IMG/VR virus record: IMGVR_UViG_3300027710_000017
Coordinates: 29,085 to 93,084 of that record
From: a virus
Direction: 5' to 3' (one strand)
Length of the DNA: 64,000 nucleotides
The notes below the pieces were generated by a model. It had not been told where the DNA came from and searched no databases. It saw only the letters and a list, made by a program, of their open reading frames with translations. Shown here in pieces: positions 2,157 to 63,935 of the stretch. Every line of letters starts with the position of its first letter. Position 1 is the first letter of the stretch. A program made the position numbers and the translations under genes.

Positions 2157-2163
2157 GAAAAAC

Positions 2164-9828: not shown

Positions 9829-12800
9829 TAAAACTTATTCCCCCTAATCCTTTGAGAGTCAATCTGCTTAATTTGTCCAATAACGGATCTAGCAATCTGA
9901 TCTGCATTGGCATCTGTTTTAACATTAACGTTTACCTCATAATTATACACTGAATCGCTGGAATGTGTTCCATTATTTATTGCTTTCATCTTGTCTACAC
10001 CATACTTTTCAACGGCATATTTGCGAACGACAAATTCTCCTGGAGTAAGCATTGCAGGGACGGTATCCGTACCCTTAGGCTCAAATATTCCACCATCACC
10101 CATGTATGGAACAGGGCCTCCCTGAGACATCATTAGCTTAGCTCCCTTGGCATTGTACGGAGTGTTGCCTGTTGGAGAGGTAAACTTATCTCCAGTAAGT
10201 GGATCTCTAAAGACTATTCCAGTATTTACCCTAGCATCTGCCACAGGAACAAAATACCCACGAGTAGGATCGTAAGTTACCGACTCTCTGGTGGATGTGG
10301 CAGGAGCTGGTGGAAGAGCTGCTGACAGAGTCTTTGACCCAAGACTATTCCAGTGAGACACAATGTCTTTAACAATATCTAGGGCTGCTTGCATGGCATC
10401 CTTGAAGGGTTGGCTAGAAGTAACTGCTAAGTCAATGCCGTTTTTTATCTGTGTCCATTCAAGCTTTGTTTTGTTAAGGACTGTTAGGGCTTCGGTAGCT
10501 ACAGCAAGATTTGCCTCAGCAATTCGAACAGCTTCTGCTGCTGGCTCTAACCTTGTTTCTTCAATCTTAAAGATTTCTTTTTCAACTCTTAGAATTTCTG
10601 CTTCTAGCTCTGTTCTAGATTTACCGCCAGAAGACCTAAGGTTGCTTAGGGCTCCTTGCCTTGACGCCTCTAGCATATCTCTCTGAGTTCCAATAGCACC
10701 CTGAGCAGATTGAGCCCTCATCTCCTGGGCTGCTCTTGCTGCTGCTGCAATGTCTCCCTGGCTTAGTGCGTCGGCAAGAGAGATCTGTGTTTTCTGCTGT
10801 GCGGAAATTGCATCGTTTGCCTTTTCAATTTTATCTAGCGCATCTAGTCTCTTGTCGTACTTTTCATTAACAGAATCTTCTTGCCATTCAATTTCTTGGA
10901 TACCAGCCTGAAGGTTATCCATTTGGAATTGTAGTGCAGCTATTTCTCTTTGAGCCTGGGCCAATATTTCTCTAGCACCCTTTTGAGCCACACCAGCAAT
11001 ACTAAAGTCTTTTAGCTTAATTTCCATATCAATCTGAAGCTTTTCTTCTTGCGCAGAGAAGGCTTCCATTGCTTTGTTAAAGCCATCATCAAAAACAGAT
11101 TGCTTAAAGTCAATGTCGTTAATTACTTGCTGCATACGTGTAGCAAATTCTGCTGGCAGTTCTGTTATCATACCGCTCAAGAACTTTTGGTATGTTTCTG
11201 AAAGTGTTGAGTCGAACTCAATTGCTGCTTGCTGTAACTCTGTAAACTTAGTATTGTTTGTGCTAAAAGCATTCTTCATTGCGCTTTCGCCTGAAGCCTG
11301 CTGAATATCTTCAATCAGCTGGAGTCTTGATGCTACTAGGCCTACCTTAGCTGCTGAATCATTAGCATCCTTTCCTAACTGCTTAAGCTCTTTAGAGCTT
11401 ATGTCTTTTGAGGCAATTGCAGCTGCAACGGCTGGGTCCTCTATAGCCTTCAGAGCTTCTGCCACAGACATACCTGCAGCAACTAACTTGTTGAATGCCG
11501 TTGACTGGTTCAGGGCGTCTCTGGAAGCTTCTTTAAGTCCAACCTGGAACTCTCCCAAGGCAATTTCATTAAATACCTTGGCCATGTTTTTGCCAGCCTC
11601 TTTAAGTGTAACGATTCCATTCTTAACTCTTATAAACTTATCTTGAATATCCTTATCAAGTCCTAGTAAGTAATCAATGAAGGTCCTGTTAACTCCTCGG
11701 CCAATTAGCTGCTGCTCAATACCCTTAAACTGCTTCATGTTTTTATTTCCGCCGAGCCACTTATTAAGCTCTGTAATTCCACCAGTTGCTTTTACTGCTG
11801 CTTCACGTATTTCTCTAAGCCTTTGCAACGGCTCTTCGTAAGGGTCTTGCTTCGCTCCGCCTGTAGGTGGAGTTTTAGCATTTGGATCAAAGTCTCCGAG
11901 GGTCATATCTGCATTTCCAGTTTCAGCTTTTTGGAAAGACATAGCTTCTGCATACTCTTTTAAGATTATAGGGTCTGGAGAGTTTGCCCACGCAGCACCT
12001 TCTGATTTTAACCAGGCCTGAACTTTTGGATCGTGAACTGTTTTGACTGAGCTTATTATTGTTGCATACGTTCTCAAGAAGATTTCTTTGCCCTCTTCTG
12101 TGAGTTTTTCAAACTCTGCTATGTCCTGACCAACTAAGTTTAAGTTTTCTGCACCGACTATATCTGCTACAACTTTAACAGTAATAGGGCCCTTTATTTT
12201 ATCTATTTCATCATACATTCCCTGAAGTTTTTTAGCTGCAGTTGGATTTTTAATAAAGAAGTCTACTGCAAAAGCAGCATCTTTTCCAGATGCCTGAGTT
12301 ACCTTTGTATAAAAGTCAATTATATCTGCAGCTTCTTTTGAAGTTTTTGCCCCGTCAACTTGAGCAACAAATGAGGAAACGACGCTATCTATTGGCTTTC
12401 CAGTTACTGGATCTGTAAAAAATTGAGTCATTGCAGATACTTGATTTGCAAAGGCTCCGCCATATTTTGTAATAATATTTACAGTTCTTGTTTGTGTTGA
12501 TTCTGGCATTGAAAGAATATTGACAAGCTGTACTGGGTCAACCTCTTTAGATGCAAGCTGCATTGTAACTAGATACTTTTTCTCTGGTGTCAGATTAGAC
12601 GATTCCAAATTCTTTAATCCAAGAGCTGCAACTGCTGCCATTGGAGTATCTTTATATGCAGCTGTGACAGAAGTTTTTGCACCAGTCATTAAGGCATCTT
12701 GTAATTCTGGACTTGCTGTTTTGTAGCTCTCCATAATTCCAGTAGTTAGTTTTTGATTTTGAGTTAAAATATCTACTCTTGCATCTTCTAATTCTTTGAG

Positions 12801-49631: not shown

Positions 49632-50251
49632 TTAACTTATTAGAGCTAAAGCCTTTTGTTATCAAGAACGTTCTTTCTGAAGAAGAGTATTCCTATGTCT
49701 ATGATTGTGTTAATAAGGGCTTTCCAGAAGAGATCAAACCTGATCTACCCTCAGATAATAGAGAATATCCAGAATACTTGAATGTTCCAGATCTTGGATA
49801 CCTGGCTTATATTAAAGGTTTTAGTGAAGACTTTAAAAAATCTATAAAAAATACTTTAGAAAATAGCTTAGGAATTCCACTATCTTTACCAGATATCCAC
49901 TTTGCCAGATACACTAGCAAAACTGGACATAAGCCAACTTTAAAACCACATTATGACATAGGCGTTAGACATCCATCAGTAACTATCTCTATTCAAATGG
50001 ACACTACTCTGGATTGGGATTTACATGCATACGATGGGTCTGCTACCCTTTCAAAAAATGAAGCTATGGTGTTTTCAGGATCACACCAAGTCCATTGGAG
50101 ACCTCCAAAAGACTTCTCTGAGGATGACTACTTTGACATTATGGTGTGCCAGCTAGCAGTTAGCGATGAGATCTTGTCTGAAGATCATGCAGAATATATG
50201 TCTATTATTAATGCAGCTGCAGGTGCTGACTATTCCGCTAGATATATGTAA
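49628..50251 (+). CDS. 2OG-Fe(II) oxygenase (paralog of upstream gene)
   Basis: KPHYD, HQVHWRP. Confidence 0.78.
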   Translation: MINLLELKPFVIKNVLSEEEYSYVYDCVNKGFPEEIKPDLPSDNREYPEYLNVPDLGYLAYIKGFSEDFKKSIKNTLENSLGIPLSLPDIHFARYTSKTGHKPTLKPHYDIGVRHPSVTISIQMDTTLDWDLHAYDGSATLSKNEAMVFSGSHQVHWRPPKDFSEDDYFDIMVCQLAVSDEILSEDHAEYMSIINAAAGADYSARYM

Positions 50252-50335
50252 ATCTGAAAAAATTTTTAAAATAGCCAAAATCTGAATATTTTACAATTAT
50301 GTATGATACATAAAAGAAATAAAAAAACAACTTTA

Positions 50336-50361
50336 TTTTAGTGAGCACACACTCGCTAAAA
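50336..50361. terminator. bidirectional terminator between convergent units
   Basis: TTTTAGTGAG-cacaca-CTCGCTAAAA hairpin with A/T tracts. Confidence 0.45.
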
Positions 50362-50411
50362 AAAATAAACACTAGTGCCAGCTTTTTACTGAACACTAGT
50401 GCCACCTTTTT

Positions 50412-50630
50412 CTATGCGACTACGCCGACAGTTGCCCAAAATTCTTTTGAGCTAGGGTCATAGCTATTGCCAGATACTCTAACCGCATACACGAATCCAC
50501 TTGGAAAGTGAACATCACCTCTAGGCTTAGCCTCTAGAATAGTTCCCCAACCTGTTCTAGCAGTTGAGTGATACTCCTTGCCCAATAGCAATTCTCCAAT
50601 AGTGTTGATTTCCATTTTTAGTTTATACAT
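50412..50630 (-). CDS. small SH3-like early protein
   Basis: ORF with RBS; GTI.E...VRV...WATV resembles 54321 ORF. Confidence 0.6.
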   Translation of the reverse strand: MYKLKMEINTIGELLLGKEYHSTARTGWGTILEAKPRGDVHFPSGFVYAVRVSGNSYDPSSKEFWATVGVVA

Positions 50631-50632
50631 TT

Positions 50633-50812
50633 CTATCTTGCCTTTCTAATAACATTTTCATTGTAGTAATTCATAACCTCTTGGACTGCCTCAACGCCGT
50701 GAACAAGTTTCATTAGTTCGTATTCTTGTTCCGCATCTTCTATCTCTTGGCGGTCGTCGCCTTGATTAGCTATGTGATAAGCGGATACCGCTTTATAGAT
50801 TTCTGGATTCAT
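50633..50812 (-). CDS. 59-aa hypothetical early protein
   Basis: Manual translation MNPEIYKAV...; RBS AGAAAGGA. Confidence 0.65.
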   Translation of the reverse strand: MNPEIYKAVSAYHIANQGDDRQEIEDAEQEYELMKLVHGVEAVQEVMNYYNENVIRKAR

Positions 50813-50825
50813 AATCTATTCCTTT

Positions 50826-51035
50826 CTACTTGATAATGCTTAGTTTGTTTAGTGATTCTAGTGTTCCTGCGAACAATTCATCAAAACTGTTTTTAGACTT
50901 TCTAATCTCGCCACACTTGACTAGGTCGTGATTAGCTTTCCACGCTTTAGCATCAAGGTAGTAGCTAACAAAAGTTTCCTGTTCATACTCGCAATTTGAG
51001 CAACGGGTCTTGCGATACATTGTTGTTTTAGTCAT
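50826..51035 (-). CDS. small Zn-binding early protein
   Basis: CSNC...H...C; RBS AGAAAAGGA. Confidence 0.7.
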   Translation of the reverse strand: MTKTTMYRKTRCSNCEYEQETFVSYYLDAKAWKANHDLVKCGEIRKSKNSFDELFAGTLESLNKLSIIK

Positions 51036-51062
51036 AATTTATCTTCCTTTTCTAATAATCTA

Positions 51063-51084
51063 AACTTAGCATAACCTACCGACA
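51063..51084 (-). promoter_or_regulatory. PafBC/RecA-NDp-type promoter
   Basis: TGTCGG-N10-TAAGTT. Confidence 0.75.
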
Positions 51085-51085
51085 T

Positions 51086-51211
51086 TTATACACGGTAGAC
51101 GCTTACAACATCTAGCATTGAGATACCTTCCTTAGCTAGGTAGAATCCCCAGTTATCTCCTGGGTAAATCTCAACTTTTCCATTTGTAAAGGTAATCTGG
51201 ACTTTTTCCAT
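51086..51211 (-). CDS. 41-aa early protein
   Basis: MEKVQITFTNGK...; RBS AGAAAGGA. Confidence 0.6.
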   Translation of the reverse strand: MEKVQITFTNGKVEIYPGDNWGFYLAKEGISMLDVVSVYRV

Positions 51212-51254
51212 TTTACACTTCCTTTCTATTTATCTAATCTTTCTTTATACCTTT

Positions 51255-51276
51255 AGCCTACCATCAACTACCGACA
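51255..51276 (-). promoter_or_regulatory. PafBC/RecA-NDp-type promoter
   Basis: TGTCGG-N10-TAGGCT. Confidence 0.75.
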
Positions 51277-51372
51277 TTTATGCCACTTTTACAAGGTATT
51301 TCTATACAAACTTTTACCCTGTTTTTTGTAGGTATTTACAGTAATTGCGACACGCCCGACGCCGTGCGCCAC

Positions 51373-51392
51373 TGTGGATAACCTGTGGATAA
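51373..51392 (-). promoter_or_regulatory. two tandem perfect DnaA boxes
   Basis: TTATCCACA x2, 11-bp period. Confidence 0.7.
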
Positions 51393-51438
51393 CTCCGTTA
51401 TGATAATGTTATGAAACGCCCCGATCAGCCTCCCCAAA

Positions 51439-51460
51439 TGTCGGTGGTTTGTGATAGGGT
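51439..51460 (+). promoter_or_regulatory. PafBC/RecA-NDp-type promoter
   Basis: TGTCGG-N10-TAGGGT. Confidence 0.75.
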
Positions 51461-51490
51461 TTTAGTAAGCCAAAAGAAAGGAAACAACAA

Positions 51491-51631
51491 ATGGACAAGA
51501 TGTGTGTTTACTGTGAGAGCGTATTCTCACCTGATACTATTGTTTGCCACAACTGTAATGAGTATGATGGGATGATGCCCCTAGAGTCTGCCATCGACTA
51601 CCTCAACCTTGACCCTAACGACTTCCTATAA
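51491..51631 (+). CDS. 46-aa Zn-ribbon protein
   Basis: CVYC...CHNC; RBS AGAAAGGA. Confidence 0.7.
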   Translation: MDKMCVYCESVFSPDTIVCHNCNEYDGMMPLESAIDYLNLDPNDFL

Positions 51632-51632
51632 A

Positions 51633-51654
51633 TGTCAGAGGGTTATGCTAGGTT
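51633..51654 (+). promoter_or_regulatory. PafBC/RecA-NDp-type promoter
   Basis: TGTCAG-N10-TAGGTT. Confidence 0.72.
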
Positions 51655-51676
51655 GGAACTAACGAAAGGAAATCAA

Positions 51677-51772
51677 ATGATAACACTAACATTCGAAACT
51701 TGGGAAGAGTTTGATAACGCTATCGCTGGGATAGTATTATTGGAAACAGAACTAACAAAGGAGAGCAACTAA
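51677..51772 (+). CDS. 31-aa early protein
   Basis: RBS GAAAGGA; coupled stop/start. Confidence 0.55.
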   Translation: MITLTFETWEEFDNAIAGIVLLETELTKESN

Positions 51773-51906
51773 TGACAGTAGAGGTAATGTTCAAAGATGG
51801 TTCAGCAATTTACCCTAGCTATGACCCAGAGCACCGCAAAAGTGTCCTAGAGTTTTATGCTAATCTTTTTGACAAGGGTGAAATTATTTCTTGGAAGGTA
51901 ATCTAA
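51772..51906 (+). CDS. 44-aa early protein
   Basis: RBS AAGGAG; TAATG coupling. Confidence 0.6.
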   Translation: MTVEVMFKDGSAIYPSYDPEHRKSVLEFYANLFDKGEIISWKVI

Positions 51907-52019
51907 TGATGTTTTATAACGGATTCAACTTGCTAATTGACCTAATCTTGGTTATAGTAGCCTATGAGGTTGGTATGTATTTCGGAACTAAGCGTGTGAT
52001 TGAAAGGAATAGCAAATGA
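51906..52019 (+). CDS. 37-aa membrane peptide
   Basis: Hydrophobic core; TAATG coupling. Confidence 0.55.
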   Translation: MMFYNGFNLLIDLILVIVAYEVGMYFGTKRVIERNSK

Positions 52020-52198
52020 TGACAGAAGAAGAATTTGATGATTGGCTAGATGATGTTTATCCAACTTACCAAATTGCTGGGGTGACTCTTTACCCCTCGC
52101 AAATGCTAAAGAACTGCGACCCTATCGCATACAGAATTGCGTTGTCAGAGTGTGAAGAAAGAGAAGAAGAGTGGGAGGGTTATTTTGACAATAAGTGA
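52016..52198 (+). CDS. small acidic phage protein
   Basis: FDDWLD...SQMLKNCDPIAYR; RBS GAAAGGA. Confidence 0.75.
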   Translation: MMTEEEFDDWLDDVYPTYQIAGVTLYPSQMLKNCDPIAYRIALSECEEREEEWEGYFDNK

Positions 52199-52280
52199 AT
52201 TAGAACAACTGATTTTCCAAATTGACCTAATGCTAACTGAAGATGTTGGCGAATTATTTACAACACCAGAGGAGAACTAA

Positions 52281-52415
52281 ATGGAATTGTTTTTGATTTT
52301 TGTAATCGTTGGTATTGCTATTTTTGTTGGAACTTCTTTAGCTGCTGTTTTGTTTTTGCTACAAGAAAATAACAGACTTGGCGAAGAGCTAGAAAAGAAT
52401 CAGCCACCCTTCTAA
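52281..52415 (+). CDS. 44-aa membrane protein ending in QPPF
   Basis: TM helix; RBS GAGGAG. Confidence 0.65.
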   Translation: MELFLIFVIVGIAIFVGTSLAAVLFLLQENNRLGEELEKNQPPF

Positions 52416-52506
52416 AACGACACGCCCGAGAGGGTGCGCCACATCCTGGGACAGATGTCAAATGTTTACGAAGAGTTTTATGATCGCCCCAAATTCTGTC
52501 CAGAAA

Positions 52507-52528
52507 TGTCAGTGGTTTATGCTAAGAT
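52507..52528 (+). promoter_or_regulatory. PafBC/RecA-NDp-type promoter (leaderless)
   Basis: TGTCAG-N10-TAAGAT with ATG 6 nt downstream. Confidence 0.75.
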
Positions 52529-52534
52529 TATTTT

Positions 52535-52687
52535 ATGTTGAACAGAACTAATGAGGCAAGACGCAAGGCAGAGAGCCAGGCGTTGTTTCAGTCTATGCTA
52601 AAAGCTCCTCACTTGGTTCAGACCCCAAAGAAATACAAAGGTAGCCGTCAGTCTAACAAGACTAAGGCAATAAAGGAGAGCGAATGA
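52535..52687 (+). CDS. 50-aa basic protein
   Basis: MLNRTNEARRK...KKYKGSR; leaderless. Confidence 0.65.
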   Translation: MLNRTNEARRKAESQALFQSMLKAPHLVQTPKKYKGSRQSNKTKAIKESE

Positions 52688-52836
52688 TTCTACAAGGCTT
52701 GATTCACTATGTATGTGAAGACTGTAATAGGTTTGTTCACTCTAACACAGTCTATTCCTATGACCTCAAAAATGTCTGTGGCAGATGTTATGCTGTTCAG
52801 GCAGGCCATCCATCAACAAGAAAGGTAAGTAAATGA
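52684..52836 (+). CDS. 50-aa Zn-finger protein
   Basis: CEDC...CGRC; RBS AAGGAG. Confidence 0.6.
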   Translation: MILQGLIHYVCEDCNRFVHSNTVYSYDLKNVCGRCYAVQAGHPSTRKVSK

Positions 52837-52933
52837 TAGATTGGGAGCCAACAATAAATGAAGAAGCTATCCTAGCCCTAACTGGCGAAGAGGTAGTAGC
52901 AATTATGGAACTACTAGAGAAAGCAGGATACTA

Positions 52934-53200
52934 ATGGGATTCGCAACTGCAGTTGGACTTACAGATACAGACCTAACCCTATCAGACCAAATTAGCATTC
53001 ACTTTAGTAGCAACTGTTATCCACCTATCCCCAAGGTAATGATTCCAGTTGCAGTTGCAGCTATTGACGCTTATTGGGAAGAAGACTATGACAGACTAAT
53101 TACCCTGCCAGAAGGCGTAGAGTTTAGGACAGGTGCAACAAGCGTGTCTGCCTCACAAGCTATTGAGTCTCTTAGGCTTGACGCTTGGTGTATGGAATAG
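52934..53200 (+). CDS. hypothetical early protein
   Basis: HFSSNCYPPIP...ITLPEGV motif. Confidence 0.75.
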   Translation: MGFATAVGLTDTDLTLSDQISIHFSSNCYPPIPKVMIPVAVAAIDAYWEEDYDRLITLPEGVEFRTGATSVSASQAIESLRLDAWCME

Positions 53201-53284
53201 ACTTGACAAGTCCACCGAAAGGTGGGCGCACCAGATCTTGATCCATAAGTCAAATTAAGAAACGTTTAAGAATGCCCTTGAAAA

Positions 53285-53306
53285 TGTCCTAGGGTAATGG
53301 TATAGT
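53285..53306 (+). promoter_or_regulatory. PafBC-type variant promoter with overlapping TTGAAA -35
   Basis: TGTCCT-N10-TATAGT. Confidence 0.65.
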
Positions 53307-53333
53307 TTTACCATACAAAGAAAGCAGGCCCCT

Positions 53334-54050
53334 ATGCTAATTCGTTCCAAAGACCGAAAGGTTACTAATGCAGTATCTCCAAATGGTAAAACGCCAACTA
53401 TTGCGAATACTTTTGGCCTTCCTTCTGGGAAAAGTTATTCCTGTCCTGGAGCAACAAGTGTATGCGAGAAAATCTGTTATGCAGGCAAGCTCGAAAAAGT
53501 ATTCAAGGGAGTAAAAGCTGTACTGTTGACAAACTGGGAGCAACTAAAAGACGCCAATCAACAACAAATGGAAGCGCTTATCTACCAAATGATAGATGAG
53601 TTTGAAAAGGACTGTGATAAAAAGAATGCTAAAAAACTATTTCGTATCCATTGGGACGGTGACTTTTTTAGTGATACTTACACAATGGCTTGGAAGAATG
53701 TAATCCTTGCATTCCCTCAAATTCAGTTCTGGGTATACACGAGGTCAGACTTTGCAGTTCCAATTCTTACTGGTATTGATAACTTAGCGCTTTACTTCTC
53801 TACCGATGACGACAACTGGCAACTGGCCAGTGAATTAAAAAAGACTAACGGTGTGAAGCTTGCTTATCTTGCTAACAACTTTGCAATGGGTAAAGAGCGC
53901 ATGTTGTCTATCACTGTCAAGTCCGCCATCCCATGTCCTGAAAATAATAAAAAGATTCCGCTCATTAGCGAAAAGGGTTCCGCTTGTGTTACCTGTTCGC
54001 AATGTGTCTTTGCTCGTAATGACATCCTGTTCAGTGCAAGTAAAACATAA
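53334..54050 (+). CDS. Gp88-like Cys-cluster (radical-SAM-like) protein
   Basis: SCPGATSVCEKICYA, FRIHWDGDFF, WVYTR, C-terminal CP...CxxCxxC. Confidence 0.8.
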   Translation: MLIRSKDRKVTNAVSPNGKTPTIANTFGLPSGKSYSCPGATSVCEKICYAGKLEKVFKGVKAVLLTNWEQLKDANQQQMEALIYQMIDEFEKDCDKKNAKKLFRIHWDGDFFSDTYTMAWKNVILAFPQIQFWVYTRSDFAVPILTGIDNLALYFSTDDDNWQLASELKKTNGVKLAYLANNFAMGKERMLSITVKSAIPCPENNKKIPLISEKGSACVTCSQCVFARNDILFSASKT

Positions 54051-54075
54051 TCTCATGCTATAGGGGCATGTAAAC

Positions 54076-54140
54076 TGTAGGTCCCTTGTTATATCCTTTC
54101 TTAGGGATCTACACGTCCTGGCCACGACGTCAAACTGGCC
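54076..54140 (+). ncRNA. anti-SD-loop hairpin plus H-type pseudoknot
   Basis: Stem GTAGGTCCCT/AGGGATCTAC with loop ...TCCTTTCT; then ACGTC-CT-GGCCA-C-GACGT-CAAAC-TGGCC. Confidence 0.6.
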
Positions 54141-54232
54141 ACAAAAGCGGCGCACCAGATTTGCCAGGGAAAGTAAAGCTTATGAAGATAACGATTTCCC
54201 CCCCCGAATCGTTATAAAAAGATGGTTGATAA

Positions 54233-54254
54233 TGTCGGTGGTATAGGCTACAAT
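54233..54254 (+). promoter_or_regulatory. PafBC/RecA-NDp-type promoter with TTGATA -35
   Basis: TGTCGG-N10-TACAAT. Confidence 0.78.
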
Positions 54255-54320
54255 GGTGGTATCAACAAAAGTTGGTAATCAAATAGACAAATCCTAGCTC
54301 TGCTAGGTGATAGGAAGCAA

Positions 54321-54473
54321 ATGTCAAACGCAACCCTAACTGTTGGCTCACAGTTCACTACTCTAAAGAGTGGTGTATCAGGCACAATTCAGGAAGTAGT
54401 AGAAAACAAGAACGGCTCTTTCCGAGTCCGTCTTGATGTAAACGGACAGCCACGCTGGACTACTGTAAAGTAA
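54321..54473 (+). CDS. 50-aa SH3-like protein
   Basis: Manual translation MSNATLTVGSQF...RVRLDVNGQPRWTTVK. Confidence 0.7.
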   Translation: MSNATLTVGSQFTTLKSGVSGTIQEVVENKNGSFRVRLDVNGQPRWTTVK

Positions 54474-54552
54474 TCTAGTTAGTGTTAGTGGCGTTAGACT
54501 ACATAAAAGGGTGAATCAGAGTCTATTAGAAATACCCTGCCACTTTCACAAA

Positions 54553-54574
54553 TGTCATACCCCACCCCTATAAT
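54553..54574 (+). promoter_or_regulatory. PafBC-type variant promoter
   Basis: TGTCAT-N10-TATAAT. Confidence 0.65.
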
Positions 54575-54607
54575 AGTAATACCCTAACAAGAAAAGGAAA
54601 ACAAACT

Positions 54608-55051
54608 ATGGCAAGAAGCCTGTCAGTAAAAATCCCAACCGCAAAACTAATCGCAGATGTAGAGCAGTCTATCGCTAAGATAGATACCGCTATTGCTGAG
54701 TATGCTGATAAGCGTAAGCAGTATGAAACAGAAATCAAGCAGTATGACCTAGACATTGTTGCTCACGCTATCAAGGCTATGTCAGACCCAAGTAATGTTG
54801 GAACAGAACACGGCTCTCTAGTTCGTGTATCAAGAGGATACAACGGAAACATTTCTGTTGATTTTGATGTTGAGGCACTTGGACTACCAGCAAAGCCAGT
54901 AGAGCCAGCAAGACCAAATGAGAAAAGTTATTTTGGTCGTGAGTATGCTACACGCAAAGAAATCCTAGAGCGTAATCTTCGTATCCTAAAGATGACAACT
55001 CAAGAGGAGATTTCAGCAAGTTCTTACTCTGCTGTTATTGACCTTATCTAA
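54608..55051 (+). CDS. hypothetical coiled-coil early protein
   Basis: RBS AGAAAAGGA. Confidence 0.8.
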   Translation: MARSLSVKIPTAKLIADVEQSIAKIDTAIAEYADKRKQYETEIKQYDLDIVAHAIKAMSDPSNVGTEHGSLVRVSRGYNGNISVDFDVEALGLPAKPVEPARPNEKSYFGREYATRKEILERNLRILKMTTQEEISASSYSAVIDLI

Positions 55052-55091
55052 CTTAGGGAAAGACCCCTGCCTAGCAGGTATAACGCCCGAA

Positions 55092-55119
55092 GCAACCTAA
55101 GCAAGTTGTAAAACTGCTT
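55092..55119 (+). ncRNA. H-type pseudoknot
   Basis: GCAAC-CT-AAGCA-A-GTTGT-AAAAC-TGCTT. Confidence 0.55.
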
Positions 55120-55249
55120 CCACTCCCCTCCAAAAGCTGAAGGATCTTTGATCCACAAATACTGTGAGGGGAAAAAGTGGGCGCACCGCATTTTCGTTAC
55201 CAAACTGTTATTTATGATGACTAATTATTTTGCCCCGAATCGTTGACAA

Positions 55250-55271
55250 TGTCGGAGGGTAGCCCTATAAT
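55250..55271 (+). promoter_or_regulatory. PafBC/RecA-NDp-type promoter with TTGACA -35
   Basis: TTGACA-A-TGTCGG-N10-TATAAT. Confidence 0.8.
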
Positions 55272-55310
55272 TAGACTATTAGTAATCCAACCCTAAAGAA
55301 AGTAGATAAC

Positions 55311-56321
55311 ATGGCACATTTGCTAGAATCCGTAAACGGAGAAACCGCATTTGCTTCACTCAGAGAGCCAGCTTGGCATGGTCTAGGAACTGTATTCACT
55401 GAGGAAGTTTCAACAGCCGAGATGTTGAAGAAAGCTAAACTAAATAACTGGAATGTTCGCTTGGAAGATGTAGAGATTCCTACTGGCATGGATTCAGACA
55501 AGGGCTACTCTTTCGTAGTTCGTGATAACCCATTCACTAAGGGCAACAAGGACATTCTTGGTGTTGTTGGTGAGCGTTATGTTCCGCTTCAGAATGAGGA
55601 CTTGTTTGATTTTGCTGATAACATTCTAGACGCTGGTGGACGCTGGGAAACCGCTGGTTCCATCAAGGGTGGTCGAGTTGTATTCGGTTCTCTAGCTCTT
55701 GAGCGTGAAACAGTTCTTGACCCTAACGGCGTATCAGATAAGGTAAACAGTTATCTTCTAGTAAACACTAGCCATGACGGCTCTATCGCAATTCAGGCAA
55801 GCATTACACCTGTCCGAGTTGTATGTGCCAACACTCTAAACTTGGCACTTGGTAATCGTGGTCGTGGTGGTTCGGTAAAGCAGTCGTTCAAGATTCGCCA
55901 CACCCAAACTGCTAACGGCAAAGTTCAAGCAGCTCGTGAGGCTCTTGGCTTGGCTAATGCTTACTTAGATGAGTTCGACAAGATGGCAAACGAGATGATT
56001 CAGAATGAAGTTAGCAAGGCTAAGTTTGATGAAATTGTTTTGGCATTGTATCCAAAGCCTGAGAAAGATTCTAAGGGTGCTGTCAAGAAGTGGGAAACTA
56101 AACTAGACATCATCAACGGCATTTATGTTGGACAGTATAACGACACTATTGCTGGAACAGCTTGGGGTGTTGCTAACGCTCTAACTGAAAGACTAGACTG
56201 GTATCGTTCGGCAAGGGGTGGCAACAACGAATCCATTCTTGCTTCCGCTTCTGGGTTTGACCCAATGATAAACGCTGAGAAGAATAGAATCTTCAAGGCA
56301 GTTCAACTGGCAACAGCATAA
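55311..56321 (+). CDS. DUF932 / TIGR03299-family phage protein
   Basis: MAH...PAWHGLG...LQNE...ETAGSIKGG...SHDGS...TPVRVVCANTL...RHT. Confidence 0.9.
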   Translation: MAHLLESVNGETAFASLREPAWHGLGTVFTEEVSTAEMLKKAKLNNWNVRLEDVEIPTGMDSDKGYSFVVRDNPFTKGNKDILGVVGERYVPLQNEDLFDFADNILDAGGRWETAGSIKGGRVVFGSLALERETVLDPNGVSDKVNSYLLVNTSHDGSIAIQASITPVRVVCANTLNLALGNRGRGGSVKQSFKIRHTQTANGKVQAAREALGLANAYLDEFDKMANEMIQNEVSKAKFDEIVLALYPKPEKDSKGAVKKWETKLDIINGIYVGQYNDTIAGTAWGVANALTERLDWYRSARGGNNESILASASGFDPMINAEKNRIFKAVQLATA

Positions 56322-56326
56322 GCAAA

Positions 56327-56353
56327 AGTCCTGGGCATGACTAAAAACTGCCC
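56327..56353 (+). ncRNA. H-type pseudoknot
   Basis: AGTC-CT-GGGCA-T-GACT-AAAAAC-TGCCC. Confidence 0.6.
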
Positions 56354-56446
56354 ATCACCTATACTTGACACAGGATCAAAAACGTGGCGCACCTGGATAA
56401 CGAAACTATAACAAGTTTACGATACAGTTTAAGAATCCCTTGAAAA

Positions 56447-56468
56447 TGTCGGTGGCTACTGGTAAAAT
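56447..56468 (+). promoter_or_regulatory. PafBC/RecA-NDp-type promoter
   Basis: TGTCGG-N10-TAAAAT. Confidence 0.78.
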
Positions 56469-56492
56469 CTAGGTATAAAGAAAGGAATTCAA

Positions 56493-56615
56493 ATGGACGA
56501 GCAAGCAGAAGAAATTCGTGAGGCATTAGCTGAGTACTATGCCAACCCAGAAGACTACACCCTAGAAGACTTCGAAGAAATCTTTCAGGATAGGGACCCA
56601 TTCGAATTTCTATAA
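56493..56615 (+). CDS. 40-aa acidic protein
   Basis: RBS AGAAAGGA. Confidence 0.65.
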   Translation: MDEQAEEIREALAEYYANPEDYTLEDFEEIFQDRDPFEFL

Positions 56616-56637
56616 TGTCGGTGGTTCATGGTAAAAT
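56616..56637 (+). promoter_or_regulatory. PafBC/RecA-NDp-type promoter
   Basis: TGTCGG-N10-TAAAAT. Confidence 0.78.
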
Positions 56638-56661
56638 CCAAATAGACAACGAAAGGAAAAC

Positions 56662-56859
56662 ATGTCGCATTTACTAAATAACATTGGATACGTTTCTTAT
56701 GATGGAAACTATGGAGCAGAAGCGGACGTACTTGTGTTCGATACTGATTCACTTACCCTGCAGCAATGGGAAACCCTAGGTGAGCTAGATGACAACTCTA
56801 GGTATGACTATGTCGAAGCTATTTTTGCAGGTAAAGACCTATCTGAATGGGAGGGCTAA
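56662..56859 (+). CDS. hypothetical early protein
   Basis: RBS GAAAGGA. Confidence 0.7.
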   Translation: MSHLLNNIGYVSYDGNYGAEADVLVFDTDSLTLQQWETLGELDDNSRYDYVEAIFAGKDLSEWEG

Positions 56860-57212
56860 TGTTAGACGTATTGGAAATGGATTACAGGATTGATGAGTAT
56901 ACCAATGAGGCAAAGGGCATTGCTTGGGATACATGTCATAAAATCTATGTACTCATGGACGAGGAGCAAGTAGCGCTTCAAAGAAGTTATGGCTATGGTG
57001 ATGAGAATGACCCAGATAGCCTAATCACAAGTGAGCAGATGACTGGTGATGAAATGAGAAAGCAAGTCATGGACTGGTATCAGAAGTCTTGTGGCCTAAG
57101 ATTTATTTCAGCTGTTTCAACCGACACCAGGTTTGGTGATGACGGCTGGGTTCACATCATTAGTCAGTTTGAAGATACTGATGAAGATGAAGATGAGGAT
57201 GAAGACCTGTAG
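56859..57212 (+). CDS. hypothetical early protein
   Basis: WDTCHKIY...SCGLRFI, acidic tail; TAATG coupling. Confidence 0.75.
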   Translation: MLDVLEMDYRIDEYTNEAKGIAWDTCHKIYVLMDEEQVALQRSYGYGDENDPDSLITSEQMTGDEMRKQVMDWYQKSCGLRFISAVSTDTRFGDDGWVHIISQFEDTDEDEDEDEDL

Positions 57213-57273
57213 CGCATTCCCTTACTTCCTTTCTGGAATGTGCTACCGTCCTAGCTATGACGTAAAACTGGCT
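57211..57273 (+). ncRNA. anti-SD-loop hairpin plus H-type pseudoknot
   Basis: AGCGCATTCC/GGAATGTGCT stem, loop CTTACTTCCTTTCT; CGTC-CT-AGCTA-T-GACG-TAAAAC-TGGCT. Confidence 0.6.
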
Positions 57274-57354
57274 TTCCAGCAGGCGCACCACAATAATGGA
57301 TCAGTGTCAACAGTTTAAGAAGAATTAAGATTACTCCCCGAAACCCCTTGATAA

Positions 57355-57376
57355 TGTCAGTGGGTAGTAGTAAAAT
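57355..57376 (+). promoter_or_regulatory. PafBC/RecA-NDp-type promoter
   Basis: TGTCAG-N10-TAAAAT. Confidence 0.78.
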
Positions 57377-57404
57377 GATACTACCCGAAAGAAAGGAACC
57401 CCCA

Positions 57405-57905
57405 ATGGGAACCAGAAACCTAACAGTAGTAAAGAACAAAGCAGGACAAACCAAGATTGCTCAATACGGACAATGGGACGGATACCCAAGCTATTCAGGT
57501 ATTCAAGCTCTAGAGTTTCTAAGAGATGAAGGCAACCAAGCCTTACTACAAGCTAAGCTAGACCTTGTCCAGTTTGTTGGTGATGAGGAAGTAGATACGC
57601 TGTATAAGCAGTATGAGTCTACTGATTGGGAGAATAAGGAATTCCTAAACGCATACCCTGGCCTACACAGAGATACTGGTATTGACATCCTAAAGGTAGT
57701 TGCCAATGCTACTGCCACTATCAAGAGTGTAGATAATACAGAGTTTGCTAAGGATGAACTATTTTGTGAGGGTGTCTATGAGGTAGACTTCTCTACTAAT
57801 AAGTTTATTACTGTCTATGACAACAAGGTTGTTGAGTATGACTTGGATTCCTTGCCTAGTGATTCGGATTACCTAGCAGCGTTTGAGGTGGAACAGCTTG
57901 TTTGA
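57405..57905 (+). CDS. conserved phage protein (MGTR...QWDGYP family)
   Basis: MGTRNL...AQYGQWDGYPS; RBS AGAAAGGA. Confidence 0.8.
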   Translation: MGTRNLTVVKNKAGQTKIAQYGQWDGYPSYSGIQALEFLRDEGNQALLQAKLDLVQFVGDEEVDTLYKQYESTDWENKEFLNAYPGLHRDTGIDILKVVANATATIKSVDNTEFAKDELFCEGVYEVDFSTNKFITVYDNKVVEYDLDSLPSDSDYLAAFEVEQLV

Positions 57906-58073
57906 TAATCTAGATACCAAGTATGCCACAGGAAACATCGCAAAGGATGTTGAGTTTATCAAAGATAACCTTAGTATTGATGACAAAGAGTTCTTTAGAA
58001 GGGCTATGGCTAACATAATGTCTGAGGGTAATGCTAGAATTGACCTACTTACTGGAGAGGAACTGGAACAGCT

Positions 58074-58268
58074 ATGATGAAACTAACAAGCACAGACCTA
58101 AAGACTTGGCAGGTAGAGTATTCTGCAGCCTACTGGGTAGAAGCTACAAGTGAAGATGAAGCTATTGAAAAGGCTATGGAACAACACGCTGATTTGCCTG
58201 ACGGTAGCTGGGAAGCAATGATTGACCCCTATGATAGCAACAACTTCAATACCCTAGGAGAAAAGTAA
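58074..58268 (+). CDS. small acidic protein (VEA.SE.EA motif)
   Basis: Motif shared with 58673 ORF. Confidence 0.65.
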   Translation: MMKLTSTDLKTWQVEYSAAYWVEATSEDEAIEKAMEQHADLPDGSWEAMIDPYDSNNFNTLGEK

Positions 58269-58462
58269 TGGCAATGGCAAAGATAAGTATTGTCCTAGAG
58301 TATGACCTAGAAAACCATTTTCAAGAATTAGCGTATAAGCACCTAAAGACCGATACTATTATTGACGAACTAGAAGATAATGTGTATGAGGATTTACTAG
58401 ACCTAATGCGTGGAGATAGATTGCGTTCTTGGTCTTACTATGAGATAGTAGATGGGAAATAA
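58268..58462 (+). CDS. hypothetical early protein
   Basis: RBS AGGAG, coupled. Confidence 0.65.
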   Translation: MAMAKISIVLEYDLENHFQELAYKHLKTDTIIDELEDNVYEDLLDLMRGDRLRSWSYYEIVDGK

Positions 58463-58609
58463 TGGAACACGAATGCGTCCCACTTCTTGAAGGAGATGCC
58501 TGGTGTCTATGTGGAAAGGACCTGGACACCTAACCAGATCCCCCGAAAGGGGTGCGCCGATTCTTTTATAGATAATCTTATTAAACATAAAAATGTAATT
58601 AAGAAGCTC

Positions 58610-58638
58610 TTGACTTTTTCCCCAGATTGTGGGACAAT
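58610..58638 (+). promoter_or_regulatory. sigma70/SigA-type promoter
   Basis: TTGACT-N17-GACAAT with TGTGG. Confidence 0.55.
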
Positions 58639-58672
58639 TGAGTATCAAAGCCCCAACCCCATAGGAGATAAA

Positions 58673-58849
58673 TTGCCTTTATACAAAGTTCAAAGAGAAT
58701 ACACCAACTGGGAAGAGATTACAGTTGAAGCAGAATCAGAAGCGGAAGCCCTAGACCTCATGGAAGATGAAAGTATGTGGGAATACGCAACTGATGCCAG
58801 TACGTACAACTACACTGGTGAGACTTGGATTGGAGACTACGATGAGTAA
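58673..58849 (+). CDS. small acidic protein (VEAESEAEA)
   Basis: TTG start after RBS AGGAGA. Confidence 0.65.
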   Translation: MPLYKVQREYTNWEEITVEAESEAEALDLMEDESMWEYATDASTYNYTGETWIGDYDE

Positions 58850-58942
58850 ACACATGCACTACTTTAGTTATGGAGCCTGCATTCATTGTGGCAAGGTAGT
58901 CAATAAAGGATTGGGCGTAGACCTATTAAGAGGGAAGAGAGT

Positions 58943-59176
58943 ATGAGCCAGATTTATGTAGACAAGAAGCCTAGTGTAAAGGATACTACTTGGACCAGGA
59001 TCTTTCATTACAATACCGCCCAGGTTATGGAATCGGATCGCTACTATGACTTCTATAAGGCTGTAGTTGAAGGAGAGCGACCAAAGTATTTCTTTGGAGA
59101 ATCTGCATGGATGAATTGCCAACGATATGTAGTTGACAAAATTGGCATGCAGGGCTATAATGTATTTAGAAGATAA
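58943..59176 (+). CDS. hypothetical protein
   Basis: ORF; KYFFGESAW motif. Confidence 0.65.
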   Translation: MSQIYVDKKPSVKDTTWTRIFHYNTAQVMESDRYYDFYKAVVEGERPKYFFGESAWMNCQRYVVDKIGMQGYNVFRR

Positions 59177-59197
59177 CCCCGATAGAAAGCAGACCCC

Positions 59198-59740
59198 ATG
59201 CATGTATTACAATGGATAGCTACAGAAGCTGATAATAAAGATGAGGCCTATCGTAGAGTAGAAGATACTCTGCAGGAAATGCTAGGCGACTTTGAATTAC
59301 CAACCCTTACTTGGTATGACTGGTTTGTCGTAGGTGGCGGACGTTGGAATACTAAGGATGATGAAAGCGCTACTGCTGCCTACACTGAAGGTAAAACTAA
59401 TCTAATTATCTCCTATGATGAAAGTCCAGAACCTTTTCTAACTGGTATCCTAAGAGCATTGGAAGACCGTAAAGCTGAGTTTGATAACTATGCCAAAGAC
59501 GTAGACAGCAGTGTAATAGATAAGATAATCAAAGACTATAACCCTAAAGAGTTTGACTTCCCTGCATTTCAGTCTCTTTATGTTATCAAGAAGGTTATTG
59601 ACATGGCCTATGGCACATGGGATTTCAATGCATACTTTTATGACATGGTCAATGATACAACTACCCCAAAGTATTTGTATGAATCTATTGACAAAGGCAA
59701 CAAAAACTGGTATCTTGTACCTGTAGACTTTCATTTCTAA
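59198..59740 (+). CDS. conserved phage protein
   Basis: MH...WYDWFVVGGGRW...LVPVDFHF. Confidence 0.8.
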   Translation: MHVLQWIATEADNKDEAYRRVEDTLQEMLGDFELPTLTWYDWFVVGGGRWNTKDDESATAAYTEGKTNLIISYDESPEPFLTGILRALEDRKAEFDNYAKDVDSSVIDKIIKDYNPKEFDFPAFQSLYVIKKVIDMAYGTWDFNAYFYDMVNDTTTPKYLYESIDKGNKNWYLVPVDFHF

Positions 59741-59752
59741 GAGAGGACCCCA

Positions 59753-60160
59753 ATGCTAAAGTTTCCAGAAGTAAAGTATGTTGAGCTAACTTGGAAAGAG
59801 TTTGAGCAACAGTTTAGACCTATCAAAAATCACTTCCGTAAAGACCCAGACGAGATTATGTTTGAGACCTATGGTGAGGAGCTAGACTTTGTTGTATCTA
59901 AAGTAGAGGACAATGTTGTTTGGACCTATGCTGATGGTGATTACTGTTCCTATGTTAGTGGAGGCTATCACTATGTAAACAGGATTGGCTATTACATTAC
60001 CGAGGTCCCTATGGAGAAAGACACAGAGTATCAGATTATCGTAAGCACCGAAGAAGAGTGTGAGTGTTACAACGAGGAAGGTTATGAAGATGGAGAAATG
60101 GGCAGAGCCGATTGTGAAAAATGCGAGGGGTATGGACTTGTCACTAACTACGTCGACTAG
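59753..60160 (+). CDS. hypothetical protein with C-terminal Zn finger
   Basis: GYHYVNRIGYYITE; CEKCEGYG. Confidence 0.75.
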   Translation: MLKFPEVKYVELTWKEFEQQFRPIKNHFRKDPDEIMFETYGEELDFVVSKVEDNVVWTYADGDYCSYVSGGYHYVNRIGYYITEVPMEKDTEYQIIVSTEEECECYNEEGYEDGEMGRADCEKCEGYGLVTNYVD

Positions 60161-60497
60161 AAACCAAAACAAAGATAAGACGCATATTGTCTATGACCTA
60201 AACATCTACCAGCTAGAGCAGTTGGACTCAGATGGTGAGTACAGACATTTTGGCCCATGGTATATACATGTCTATGAATATGAAAACAGTAACATCGAAG
60301 AAGTTACAGCTCCAATAGAGTTAACTCAGGAGGAGTACGATAGTCTTATTGCTAATGACCCATACTTTGACGAGCCAGACGTATGGTATGGCCTAGAAGG
60401 ATTTCTATTTGAAAAGTGGGACCAGCTGGACGATCGTTTAAAGATGGTATTTGAATGTCTACCCAAGTACAAGGAAGATGCATTAGTAGATAACTAA
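60138..60497 (+). CDS. hypothetical acidic protein
   Basis: 3' part of track ORF 60060..60497; start uncertain. Confidence 0.55.
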   Translation: MSLTTSTRNQNKDKTHIVYDLNIYQLEQLDSDGEYRHFGPWYIHVYEYENSNIEEVTAPIELTQEEYDSLIANDPYFDEPDVWYGLEGFLFEKWDQLDDRLKMVFECLPKYKEDALVDN

Positions 60498-60599
60498 ATA
60501 AGGATTGATACGTCGAGCCTAGCTCCGTATCATGGATAACTGGTTAGGGGTAGCCAGGGTATCCGAACGGGGTGTCAGGACTCTTTCCTACTTTCAGTC

Positions 60600-60628
60600 T
60601 TGACACCCCAACTAATTTTTGATACAAT
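60600..60628 (+). promoter_or_regulatory. sigma70/SigA-type promoter
   Basis: TTGACA-N17-TACAAT, with the -35 lying in the 3' arm of a 14-bp hairpin. Confidence 0.7.
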
Positions 60629-60647
60629 GTCATAGGAGAATAATACA

Positions 60648-60857
60648 ATGAGGCACTTGAAACCAACGAAAGAACTAAGGGTAGCTGTAAAAATGTCAGA
60701 CCTTGTCAATGACCTAACGCTAGACCTAGACCAAGTTGGAACATACATAGCAACTAACAACGCTACCACTTACAGACGAATTATGGAAGTTGCTGATTCG
60801 GCTAGGTATGAAAAAGAGCAAATGTGGAAGGACAATAATGACGACAACCTTTTCTAA
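60648..60857 (+). CDS. hypothetical protein
   Basis: RBS AGGAG. Confidence 0.7.
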   Translation: MRHLKPTKELRVAVKMSDLVNDLTLDLDQVGTYIATNNATTYRRIMEVADSARYEKEQMWKDNNDDNLF

Positions 60858-61113
60858 CAAGTGTGAAATACTTGGAGAACTTTGGATGGACTACAGAGAA
60901 GACGAAGAGTTCCAAGACTTTGTGGAATACAATGACTTGGGATTGCCATTAGCATATATGGTTGCTAGTGGAATCATAGCTACACCAACAGAGAAGGCAG
61001 AGGACATTGTAAACGAAACCTTTGACCTATTCCTAGGCTCTATGAGTATCAAAGACATTGGCTTCGAAACTTTGCCAGATGTGTTTGATGTAGCAGCGAA
61101 CCCACCAGAGTAA
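60838..61113 (+). CDS. hypothetical protein
   Basis: KCEILGELW...YNDLGLPLAY. Confidence 0.75.
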   Translation: MTTTFSNKCEILGELWMDYREDEEFQDFVEYNDLGLPLAYMVASGIIATPTEKAEDIVNETFDLFLGSMSIKDIGFETLPDVFDVAANPPE

Positions 61114-61226
61114 AACCAGGGATCTGGCTTCGGCCAGAAACTTGGCGCACCACATCTTTGTCCATTTGTCAAGGGTATTACGATAACAATTTGATTACGA
61201 TGGATCATATTTTTCCCCAGAATATA

Positions 61227-63176: not shown

Positions 63177-63935
63177 TTAATTATTAGTCTCTATAATGCG
63201 AGTATAGGTAATTTCGCTGTTACCGTTGCCCTTAGCCCAGCCCTTAATAGAGCGTATCTCAGTCCTGTCTCCTGGCTTACCACCTGCGTGAATCATCTCG
63301 TCAGGGCCTATGTAGATACCGATGTGATAGGCACTACCGTAGCTTTGGTAATTAAAGGATACAAGGTCTCCGATCTTTGGCTCAGTTACGATAGCCCCAG
63401 AAACTCTTTGAACAGAAGCTCTGTGCTCAAGGTCAACGCCAAGGTGAGCGTATGTCCACTTGACAAGTCCTGAGCAATCCCATGCAGCTGGAGTAGATCC
63501 ACTAAAGACCCAAGGGGTTTTTCCAATTTGCTTCTTGACTAAAACCAAGGTCTCGTTTAGTGTCTTGGTGTCACTGGCAACCTTTTCCAGTCTGGCAATC
63601 TCTGCCTCTAGCTCATCCTGCTTTTTTTCAGCATCGGACTTGAGCTTATCCTTTGCTGCCTTTTCCTGGGCCATCCAATCGACTGAGCCGATGAGGGGTG
63701 GGTCTGAAGCCAGGACTGGCCCAACTGCCAGCTCCAAGGCCTTCACTGGCCCTGAGAAGATAACTTCTGTTGTTACTGGGGAATCAATTACTGGTGTTGG
63801 CTTTGTTACTTGTGTTACTGGTTGTTCTTTGTTCGATAATTCTGTGGTCTCTATCATAGCTCCGAATGCTACTCCAGTACCACTTGTAAGTAGCAATGCA
63901 ATCATACCAATTGCGATGAACCTTTTTCTTTCCAT
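63177..63935 (-). CDS. secreted NlpC/P60 peptidoglycan endopeptidase
   Basis: Signal/TM N-terminus, coiled coil, WDCSGLV, PKIGDLV, HIGIY, MIHA. Confidence 0.92.
   Translation of the reverse strand: MERKRFIAIGMIALLLTSGTGVAFGAMIETTELSNKEQPVTQVTKPTPVIDSPVTTEVIFSGPVKALELAVGPVLASDPPLIGSVDWMAQEKAAKDKLKSDAEKKQDELEAEIARLEKVASDTKTLNETLVLVKKQIGKTPWVFSGSTPAAWDCSGLVKWTYAHLGVDLEHRASVQRVSGAIVTEPKIGDLVSFNYQSYGSAYHIGIYIGPDEMIHAGGKPGDRTEIRSIKGWAKGNGNSEITYTRIIETNN

Follow-up and report, generated by a model that had tools for sequence, protein, structure and literature searches.

Short palindromes are purged from a block of early-gene cassettes in a viral contig, and GATC is kept at the cassette joints

The DNA analysed here, called the window, is a stretch of 64,000 nucleotides from a virus (positions 29,085 to 93,084 of IMG/VR record IMGVR_UViG_3300027710_000017), and it raises the question of why a four-base word should be missing from a whole group of genes yet persist in the gaps between them. 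The window is the last 64 kb of a linear, 93,084-bp contig that is 82% complete, and all coordinates below are window positions. A sequence-only reading of the early-gene region had noticed that GATC was scarce there and that the few copies left lay between genes, and had proposed that the first DNA to enter the cell avoids a GATC restriction site. We find that the loss is broader than GATC. Short palindromes are purged from a whole block of about 10.9 kb (50290..61200, unstranded, as are the GATC sites described below), and GATC is the sole palindrome that is purged from the gene bodies of this block yet kept at the joints between its gene cassettes.

The block is an array of small-gene cassettes, each made up of a 5' module (TTTAAGAA/TTACGA repeats, a promoter and a ribosome-binding site), one to several genes, and 3' hairpins, several of which have GNRA or UUCG tetraloops. 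Between cassettes lies a short joint that carries an exact, GC-rich 8-mer tag, here GGCGCACC, and the tag is lineage-specific. An exact search of 50190-58990 returned ten GATC at just the positions that had been read by eye (51423, 52482, 53234, 53240, 54106, 55143, 55150, 56374, 57299 and 58537), and the nearest sites outside this interval are at 50183 and 58999. The whole 93-kb contig holds 300 GATC (3.2/kb), a density at which about 28 would be expected here, close to the roughly 30 estimated before. When 300 sites were placed at random, an 8.8-kb window with ten or fewer appeared in 0.5% of simulations. Beyond the early region GATC is indeed common, at a normal density of 285 observed against 307 expected.

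The intergenic placement of all ten sites also held under our gene calls, which combined open reading frames (ORFs), ribosome-binding sites and the pattern of third-position substitutions in comparison with two relatives. The site at 58537 falls 3 nt past the stop codon of a small conserved ORF and upstream of the true start at 58673, and the site at 51423 is upstream of a promoter. With 71% of the region coding, the probability that all ten sites would be non-coding is 3.7e-6. Synonymous-codon shuffling of 24 early coding sequences (6.2 kb, 2000 shuffles) gave an expectation of 25.3 +/- 3.8 GATC with a minimum of 14, against 0 observed. Codon usage was rejected as the cause of the deficit, since the shuffle preserves it and still expects 25 GATC.

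The retained sites lie between transcription units, as had been supposed, at or in the short segment that separates one cassette's 3' module from the next 5' module. All ten are 7-57 nt from a GGCGCACC/GGTGCGCC tag, which agrees with the distance of about 60 bp given earlier, and nine of nine tags have a GATC within 57 nt. Four of the sites (53234, 53240, 56374 and 57299) sit within the 15 nt that separate the tag from a TTGACA-like hexamer, the element that had been called a pseudo-promoter. The tag lies on the + strand at 53225..53232 and at sites starting at 54149, 55180, 56386, 57282 and 61144, and on the - strand at 52433, 58551 and 51364, the last being a 7-of-8 variant, TGGCGCAC. Its orientation relative to transcription can be either way, it is often flanked at 15-16 nt by TTGACA or the complement, and its core hexamer, GCGCAC, has just one other occurrence in the 93-kb contig.

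The purge itself extends over the class of short palindromes. The block starts abruptly on the left near 50290 and ends on the right at about 60.2-61.2 kb. Within these limits the observed/expected ratio for 4-bp palindromes as a class is 0.55, compared with 0.95 in the rest of the genome, and 6-bp palindromes occur at 6.5/kb against 15.7/kb outside; palindromes differ from other words in the block with a Mann-Whitney p of about 1e-9. Against maximal-order Markov expectations for 50238-58462, ATAT was observed 4 times where 37 were expected, TTAA 7 times against 41, GTAC 4 times against 26 and TGCA 13 times against 30, whereas in the rest of the genome ATAT, TTAA and TGCA are near expectation and GTAC is less short (148 against 219). 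ATAT and TTAA are thus more depleted than GATC, and the avoidance cannot be called GATC-specific. ATAT, TGCA and GTAC are missing from the non-coding DNA and joints of the block too, whereas GATC in 50238-58462 is found 0 times in coding and 9 times in non-coding sequence. Avoidance of stray -10 elements was considered as a reason for the loss of ATAT and TTAA and was rejected, as TANNNT is not depleted (21.8/kb against 23.5/kb). From the restriction proposal, then, what stands is that this block is under special pressure to lose short palindromes; its focus on GATC is not supported, nor is a GATC-cutting host enzyme as the driver, because the joint sites should then have vanished as well and are instead actively kept.

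Two further palindromes, CCGG and CGCG, are at zero in the whole contig (66 and 37 expected, Markov). Both are also absent from nearly all of 80 related loci, and have been regained in a few lineages, CCGG in L041, L047, L060, L063 and L081 and CGCG in L062.

These 80 loci, which have a homologue of the DUF932 gene of the block at 66-92% identity, allowed the pattern to be followed beyond one phage. Because automatic ORF callers put spurious ORFs in the joints, which makes family-wide coding and non-coding figures conservative, the family comparisons leaned instead on promoter-anchored zones and on the DUF932 gene. This gene is free of GATC in 78 of the 80 loci. A GATC lies no more than 300 nt upstream of it in 76 of 79 loci and no more than 250 nt downstream in 74 of 79, and when only distinct flanks are counted the upstream and downstream windows contain GATC in 94% and 92% of cases, while palindromes of the same base composition are present in 10-59% of the same windows. 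Ranked among 136 words, GATC came 7th and 8th in the two flanks, even though a palindrome has half the chances of the other words in such a ranking. In 25 relatives with the same promoter type, GATC density was 3.5/kb in the zones upstream of promoters and fell to 0.5/kb over the remainder of the early block; beyond the block it was 2.8/kb. The junction GATCs are therefore kept across relatives.

When early gene bodies were pooled over 23 family members (the window phage and 22 relatives), the six most depleted of 136 strand-collapsed 4-mers were all palindromes, with ratios of 0.11 for TTAA, 0.15 for ATAT, 0.18 for GATC, 0.29 for TATA, 0.51 for GTAC and 0.52 for GGCC. The joint-to-body ratio of GATC in the same set, 7.0, was the highest of the words compared. 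TTAA, ATAT and GATC are low in every lineage, and further losses are lineage-specific. One locus, L071 (IMGVR_UViG_3300046804_001530), is an extreme case of palindrome purging: GATC, AGCT and GGCC do not occur anywhere in its 18.3 kb, and the early block is also without CATG, ACGT, TCGA, GTAC, TTAA and ATAT, so that nearly all 4-bp palindromes are gone from that block.

At closer range, two relatives (L013 and L030) have 82% DNA identity to the window over the block, share six joint GATCs exactly, have the GATC moved to a nearby position at two other joints, and have none in the large early genes. The joint site at 51423..51426 lies 12 nt upstream of the promoter element at 51438. The site at 52482..52485 is replaced in both relatives by a GATC aligned to 52442/52448. 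At 53234..53243 there is a doublet, GATCTTGATC, in the 15-nt spacer from the tag at 53225 to AGTCAA at 53248; its 53240 copy is conserved in both relatives and its 53234 copy in L013 only. The site at 54106..54109, in the 3' arm of a hairpin with CCTTTCT in its loop, is conserved in both. A second doublet, GGATC-TTT-GATCC, occupies 55143..55153, and 55150 is the copy conserved in this comparison. The sites at 56374..56377 (15-nt spacer, TTGACA at 56365 to the tag at 56386) and 57299..57302 (15-nt spacer, tag at 57282 to TGTCAA at 57305) are both conserved, whereas the position of the one at 58537..58540, which abuts the hairpin CCCC-GAAA-GGGG and the tag at 58551, turns over in the two relatives. 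A last joint site, 61121..61124, accompanies the last tag and lies beyond the range covered by the sequence-only reading.

Other lineages have tags of their own, among them GGGGTACC, GGCTAGCC, GGCCGACC, GGCGAGCC and GGGCCCCC, and a GATC lies within 65 nt of the tag at 15 of 17 places in L027, 8 of 8 in L025 and 7 of 7 in L073. A longer motif around the joint GATC (RGATCY, GGATC and the like) was sought and rejected, the flanking bases being like background. GATC often falls between the TTGACA hexamer and the tag, at variable places in that spacer, it is present in about half of the windows upstream of promoters, and it is not found in the cores of real promoters. Doublets make up 19% of GATC contexts in the early block, compared with 10% outside. 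In distant lineages such as L037, L042 and L028, the GATC of the joint upstream of DUF932 adjoins or shares bases with CRP-type sites (TGTGA-N6-TCACA, e.g. GATCATGTGAATTTAATCACA) or a GATCACA half-site.

These data show that GATC is positively retained: almost all joints have one copy or more, its exact place varies, and no longer motif surrounds it. Retention of the word in a purged background makes it probable that the joint GATC is used. That it moves about within the joint, lacks an extended motif, often comes as a doublet and neighbours the tag suggests that a protein recognises it at the DNA level.

What kind of DNA the block may be was approached through its relatives. The phage encodes a portal protein, a major capsid protein and a 2,973-residue tape-measure protein, and its nearest named relatives are siphoviruses of Streptomyces cluster BE (portal 47% identical); near-identical phage records were sought, and none was found. 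BE phages such as Bmoc, Jay2Jay and Samisti12 have direct terminal repeats of about 11 kb with 20-25 small genes (PMC5764925). The BE repeats measure 10.8-11.06 kb, that of Bmoc being positions 1-11063, which matches the size of the block. Among the ORFs of 38-64 kb, a GP88-family gene (50% identity) and the DUF932 gene (56-57%) are the only ones that match the Bmoc repeat, with order and orientation unchanged; the other Bmoc match among these ORFs, 63177-63935, lies past the block and matches Bmoc outside its repeat. GC content is slightly higher in the block than elsewhere in the genome, as it is in the Bmoc repeat, although the difference is much smaller: the 11,063-bp repeat of Bmoc has 55.7% GC and its unique part 48.4%. 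We infer that the purged block is the pre-early terminal repeat of this phage, of which the assembly kept a single copy. One related record, IMGVR_UViG_3300043438_002264 (124,540 bp, carrying L007 and L008), has an 8,517-bp repeat at both ends that is 100% identical. It was rejected as a true terminal repeat, as it starts inside the block and runs past it; its probable origin is overlap in the assembly of a 116-kb unit.

The explanation we favour is that 50.29-61.2 kb would be the pre-early block of a long-tailed phage distantly related to the BE cluster, corresponding to the 11-kb direct terminal repeat and so to the DNA first exposed in the cell. The purge would serve to escape double-strand nucleases at a stage when the phage's counter-measures are not yet at work, and the joint GATC would be a recognition site at the DNA level; a regulatory or insulating protein, an enzyme that nicks or cuts, and a methylation mark are the candidates. 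We put the probability of this explanation as a whole at about 0.5.

Several observations hold that figure down. The link from the block to the BE repeat consists of two genes, and the terminal repeat and the direction of entry are putative for this phage. A purge specific to the repeat was looked for in Bmoc and there is none, GATC being missing from that genome throughout. T5, which the earlier proposal had named as the parallel for site avoidance, offers no quantitative precedent: the palindrome ratio of its first-step DNA is 0.84, a weak deficit compared with 0.55 here, and its 24 GATC against 29 expected are normal. The core purged words are common to all lineages, which a cause intrinsic to the phage fits at least as well as varied host enzymes would. 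We know of no restriction enzyme that recognises ATAT. Joint GATCs would defeat the avoidance of a GATC-cutting enzyme, the absence of any GATC from L071 and Bmoc indicates that the site is dispensable, and the relatives are not phylogenetically independent. In seven freshwater actinobacterial draft genomes there are no methylated motifs and no methylase genes (PMC6329791), and if the host were like these, host restriction would be doubtful. Taken with the core losses common to all lineages, these lake bacteria would fit a phage-encoded cause.

A gene for a reader of GATC was sought in the contig. Neither the adenine methylase families PF02086, PF05869 and PF01555 (MethyltransfD12, Dam and N6_N4_Mtase) nor MutH/Sau3AI-type or DpnII-type nuclease genes nor a ParB_N gene were found in this contig, which is 82% complete, and the early proteins have no match to any family of known function.

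Other explanations of the joint sites have to be weighed against a recognition site in a nuclease-avoiding block. The joint copies could be passive leftovers or chance, if purging had proceeded where synonymous change is free and the joint GATCs had been kept through constrained overlapping motifs or shared ancestry. Their density of 3.5-4.7/kb is near the background of 2.8-3.0/kb, only about half of the promoter-upstream windows have one, the GATC overlaps the CRP-like half-site in some distant lineages, and the relatives share kinship. Yet ATAT, TGCA and GTAC have been purged from the same joints, there is no conserved context around GATC, its presence persists while positions and flanks differ between lineages, and its rank in the DUF932 flanks is high despite the palindrome's halved chances, so we regard this account as unlikely. 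Selection could instead act on RNA, with GAUC avoided in early transcripts, for example as the target of an endoribonuclease, and surviving where little is transcribed, between terminator and promoter. Such selection would explain why GATC is absent from coding sequence and at background density in the spacers, and why most sites come after the 3' hairpins and ahead of the next promoter. It would not explain why every other purged word is a palindrome, an indication that the DNA duplex is what is recognised, or why flank presence is 92-94% where the neutral expectation is about 40-60%; the site at 54106, moreover, lies in a hairpin that is probably transcribed, and no GAUC-specific RNase is known to us. 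This makes an RNA-level cause very improbable.

Two more specific roles belong to the DNA level. The N6-adenine state of the joint GATC (virion, unmethylated or hemimethylated) could set factor binding at the TTGACA-spacer-tag element, which would time early transcription or label replicated DNA. GATC sites in promoters are known to control transcription in E. coli elements, and the joints resemble Dam sites in that the four bases alone are conserved, often in the spacer of a promoter-like element and commonly as doublets (the 19% against 10% noted above). We nevertheless consider such a mark quite unlikely, as its position is variable, real promoter cores are GATC-free, the purge of gene bodies is left unexplained, no gene of the three methylase families was found in the 82% complete contig, and lake actinobacterial genomes are without m6A motifs (PMC6329791). 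The last possibility, which the sequence-only reading had raised as the release of intact promoter-gene cassettes, is programmed or tolerated fragmentation: a host or early phage GATC endonuclease would cut first-entered DNA only at the joints and leave the cassettes expressible, identical 4-nt ends would permit rejoining and reordering, and a cut could free the entered DNA for the second transfer, as in Davison's proposal for T5. Cassette release fits the anatomy of the joints. Cassettes are GATC-free inside, with at least one GATC per tag-bearing joint, each comes with a promoter and 3' hairpins of its own, two relatives have the cassettes in another order with homology breaks that flank the tag and GATC, and there are DnaA-box pairs as in the T5 injection-stop region (10.1101/866236). 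On the other side, nuclease genes of the MutH/Sau3AI and DpnII types were not found in the contig, sites would be tolerated rather than positively retained unless cutting is needed, in 2 of 5 joints the GATC is within the upstream 3' module and away from the homology break, recombination between repeated modules explains shuffling without cutting (PMC2839356), and the T5 cleavage model is itself just a hypothesis. Fragmentation in this sense seems improbable to us, and still a little less probable is the fuller version in which the joint GATCs are working cut-and-join points, so that anti-host genes stay expressible, entered DNA is freed and sticky ends re-ligate the cassettes in a new order.

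The shuffling is seen at the same joints. BLAST homology with relatives stops right after the 3' hairpins and restarts right after the tag or the GATC, and these break positions identify the joint as a variable segment; in 2 of the 5 joints examined, the GATC is inside the 3' module of the upstream cassette and off the break. Cassette order is permuted relative to the window in L040 (8133-11661), where the 56386-57272 cassette is ahead of DUF932, and in L007 (1-2540), where three downstream cassettes are ahead of it, with the breaks at joints.

The early promoters have the consensus ATGTC(G/A)GTGG-N7-TAnnnT. One of them, ATGTCGGTGG-N7-TAAAAT, is at 56446..56468 on the + strand; others on that strand start at 51438, 51632, 52506, 53284, 54232, 55249, 56615, 57354 and 58018, and two on the - strand occupy 51255-51277 and 51063-51085. 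They match TGTCRGTG-N8-TANNNT, which we take to be the actinobacterial PafBC/RecA-NDp motif, and this match and the Streptomyces relatives point to a probable actinobacterial host. A search of genome contigs for the host gave as its sole match a 2-kb contig in a metagenome-assembled genome of Bacteroidia, which is uninformative. The promoter at 52506-52537 has its -10 element, TAAGAT (52523-52528), only 6 nt before the ATG at 52535, so the gene that starts there is probably translated from a leaderless mRNA.

The two genes shared with the Bmoc repeat, neither of which has an internal GATC, are the GP88-family gene (PF17338; 53334..54050, + strand; homologue Bmoc gp8) and the DUF932 gene (PF06067; 55311..56321, + strand; homologue Bmoc gp2). 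Two perfect DnaA-box 9-mers, TGTGGATAA CC TGTGGATAA, lie 2 bp apart on the - strand at 51373..51392, where promoters diverge, about 1.1 kb away from the block's inner edge, and similar pairs 1-4 bp apart are found at 45 of the 80 related loci, in 1-3 places each. The Cys-rich 23-codon ORF at 58463-58534 (MEHECVPLLEGDAWCLCGKDLDT) overlaps the preceding stop codon; it is conserved at the protein level in L013, with mostly synonymous changes, and deleted in L030. An early protein of 117 residues (56859-57212), for which no family match was found, ends in DEDL, with GAAGAT/GAAGAC-type repeats near the 3' end of its gene. Anti-restriction proteins that mimic DNA feature such acidic tails.

Survival of a phage in the face of host nucleases is decided in the first minutes of infection, and this family of blocks is an unusually clean sequence record of nuclease pressure, with a purge far more thorough than that of the textbook case, T5. 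If the block is the first-entering terminal repeat, such a purge could locate these regions in uncultured phage contigs and could predict the relevant host nucleases. The conserved joint GATC beside a lineage-specific tag suggests that the exchangeable early-gene cassettes are organised or regulated through a protein-DNA interaction not described before, and if the joints were cut and rejoined, the array would tolerate restriction and shuffle itself. It is already known that first-injected DNA can avoid restriction sites and that promoter-terminator cassettes are shuffled (PeSL, PMC2839356); in the literature searched we found no description of a purge of this strength and breadth, of its confinement to a block, or of a protected joint GATC.

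The block can be compared with several known systems. It is like the BE-cluster repeat in having many single-gene units with gaps of 100-150 nt, a length of about 11 kb and homologues of GP88 and DUF932, and unlike it in composition (GC 48-56% there and 40% here) and in that most cassette genes are unshared. Bmoc (NC_055842.1) has 0 GATC in 132,885 bp, where about 400 would be expected. In T5-like phages (T5 and BF23), restriction acts only via sites in the first-injected terminal repeat (PMC10644984), and the first-step repeat of these phages is likewise about 10-11 kb of early DNA, with divergent transcription units and with small genes whose functions are unknown. A purge of palindromes that is confined to 50.29-61.2 kb while targets are present elsewhere, and that recurs in relatives, is what the block would share with a repeat of this type. 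Towards the inner end of the T5 repeat, in the region that Davison proposed as the injection stop (10.1101/866236), there are DnaA boxes paired at 2-3 bp, and the window phage has a similar pair; the role of the boxes is unproven even in T5. There is no protein homology to T5, and the repeat and two-step entry, which in T5 depends on the pre-early proteins A1 and A2, are putative here. The T5 record (AY543070) gives a single-strand nick consensus, 5'-N-Pu-pGCGC-N-3', and the GGCGCACC tag contains a fitting G|GCGC|A; the T5 first-step region is rich in GCGC (5.8/kb against 0.85/kb), and the match with the tag may be coincidence. In Autographiviridae, the position of a Type I motif in the leading region, and not its frequency in the genome, decides sensitivity (PMC12455610). 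That case concerns a single motif and is experimental, whereas here a whole class of 4-bp palindromes is involved, the pattern is inferred from sequence and one palindrome is kept at the joints. Finally, the cassettes are like the PeSL cassettes of T4-type phages (PMC2839356), in which small genes of unknown function are flanked by repeated promoter-terminator modules, and their order is similarly shuffled between relatives with breaks at the modules. The window phage differs from these in its PafBC-like promoters and in an additional central joint, where an exact 8-mer tag peculiar to the lineage is accompanied by a conserved GATC.

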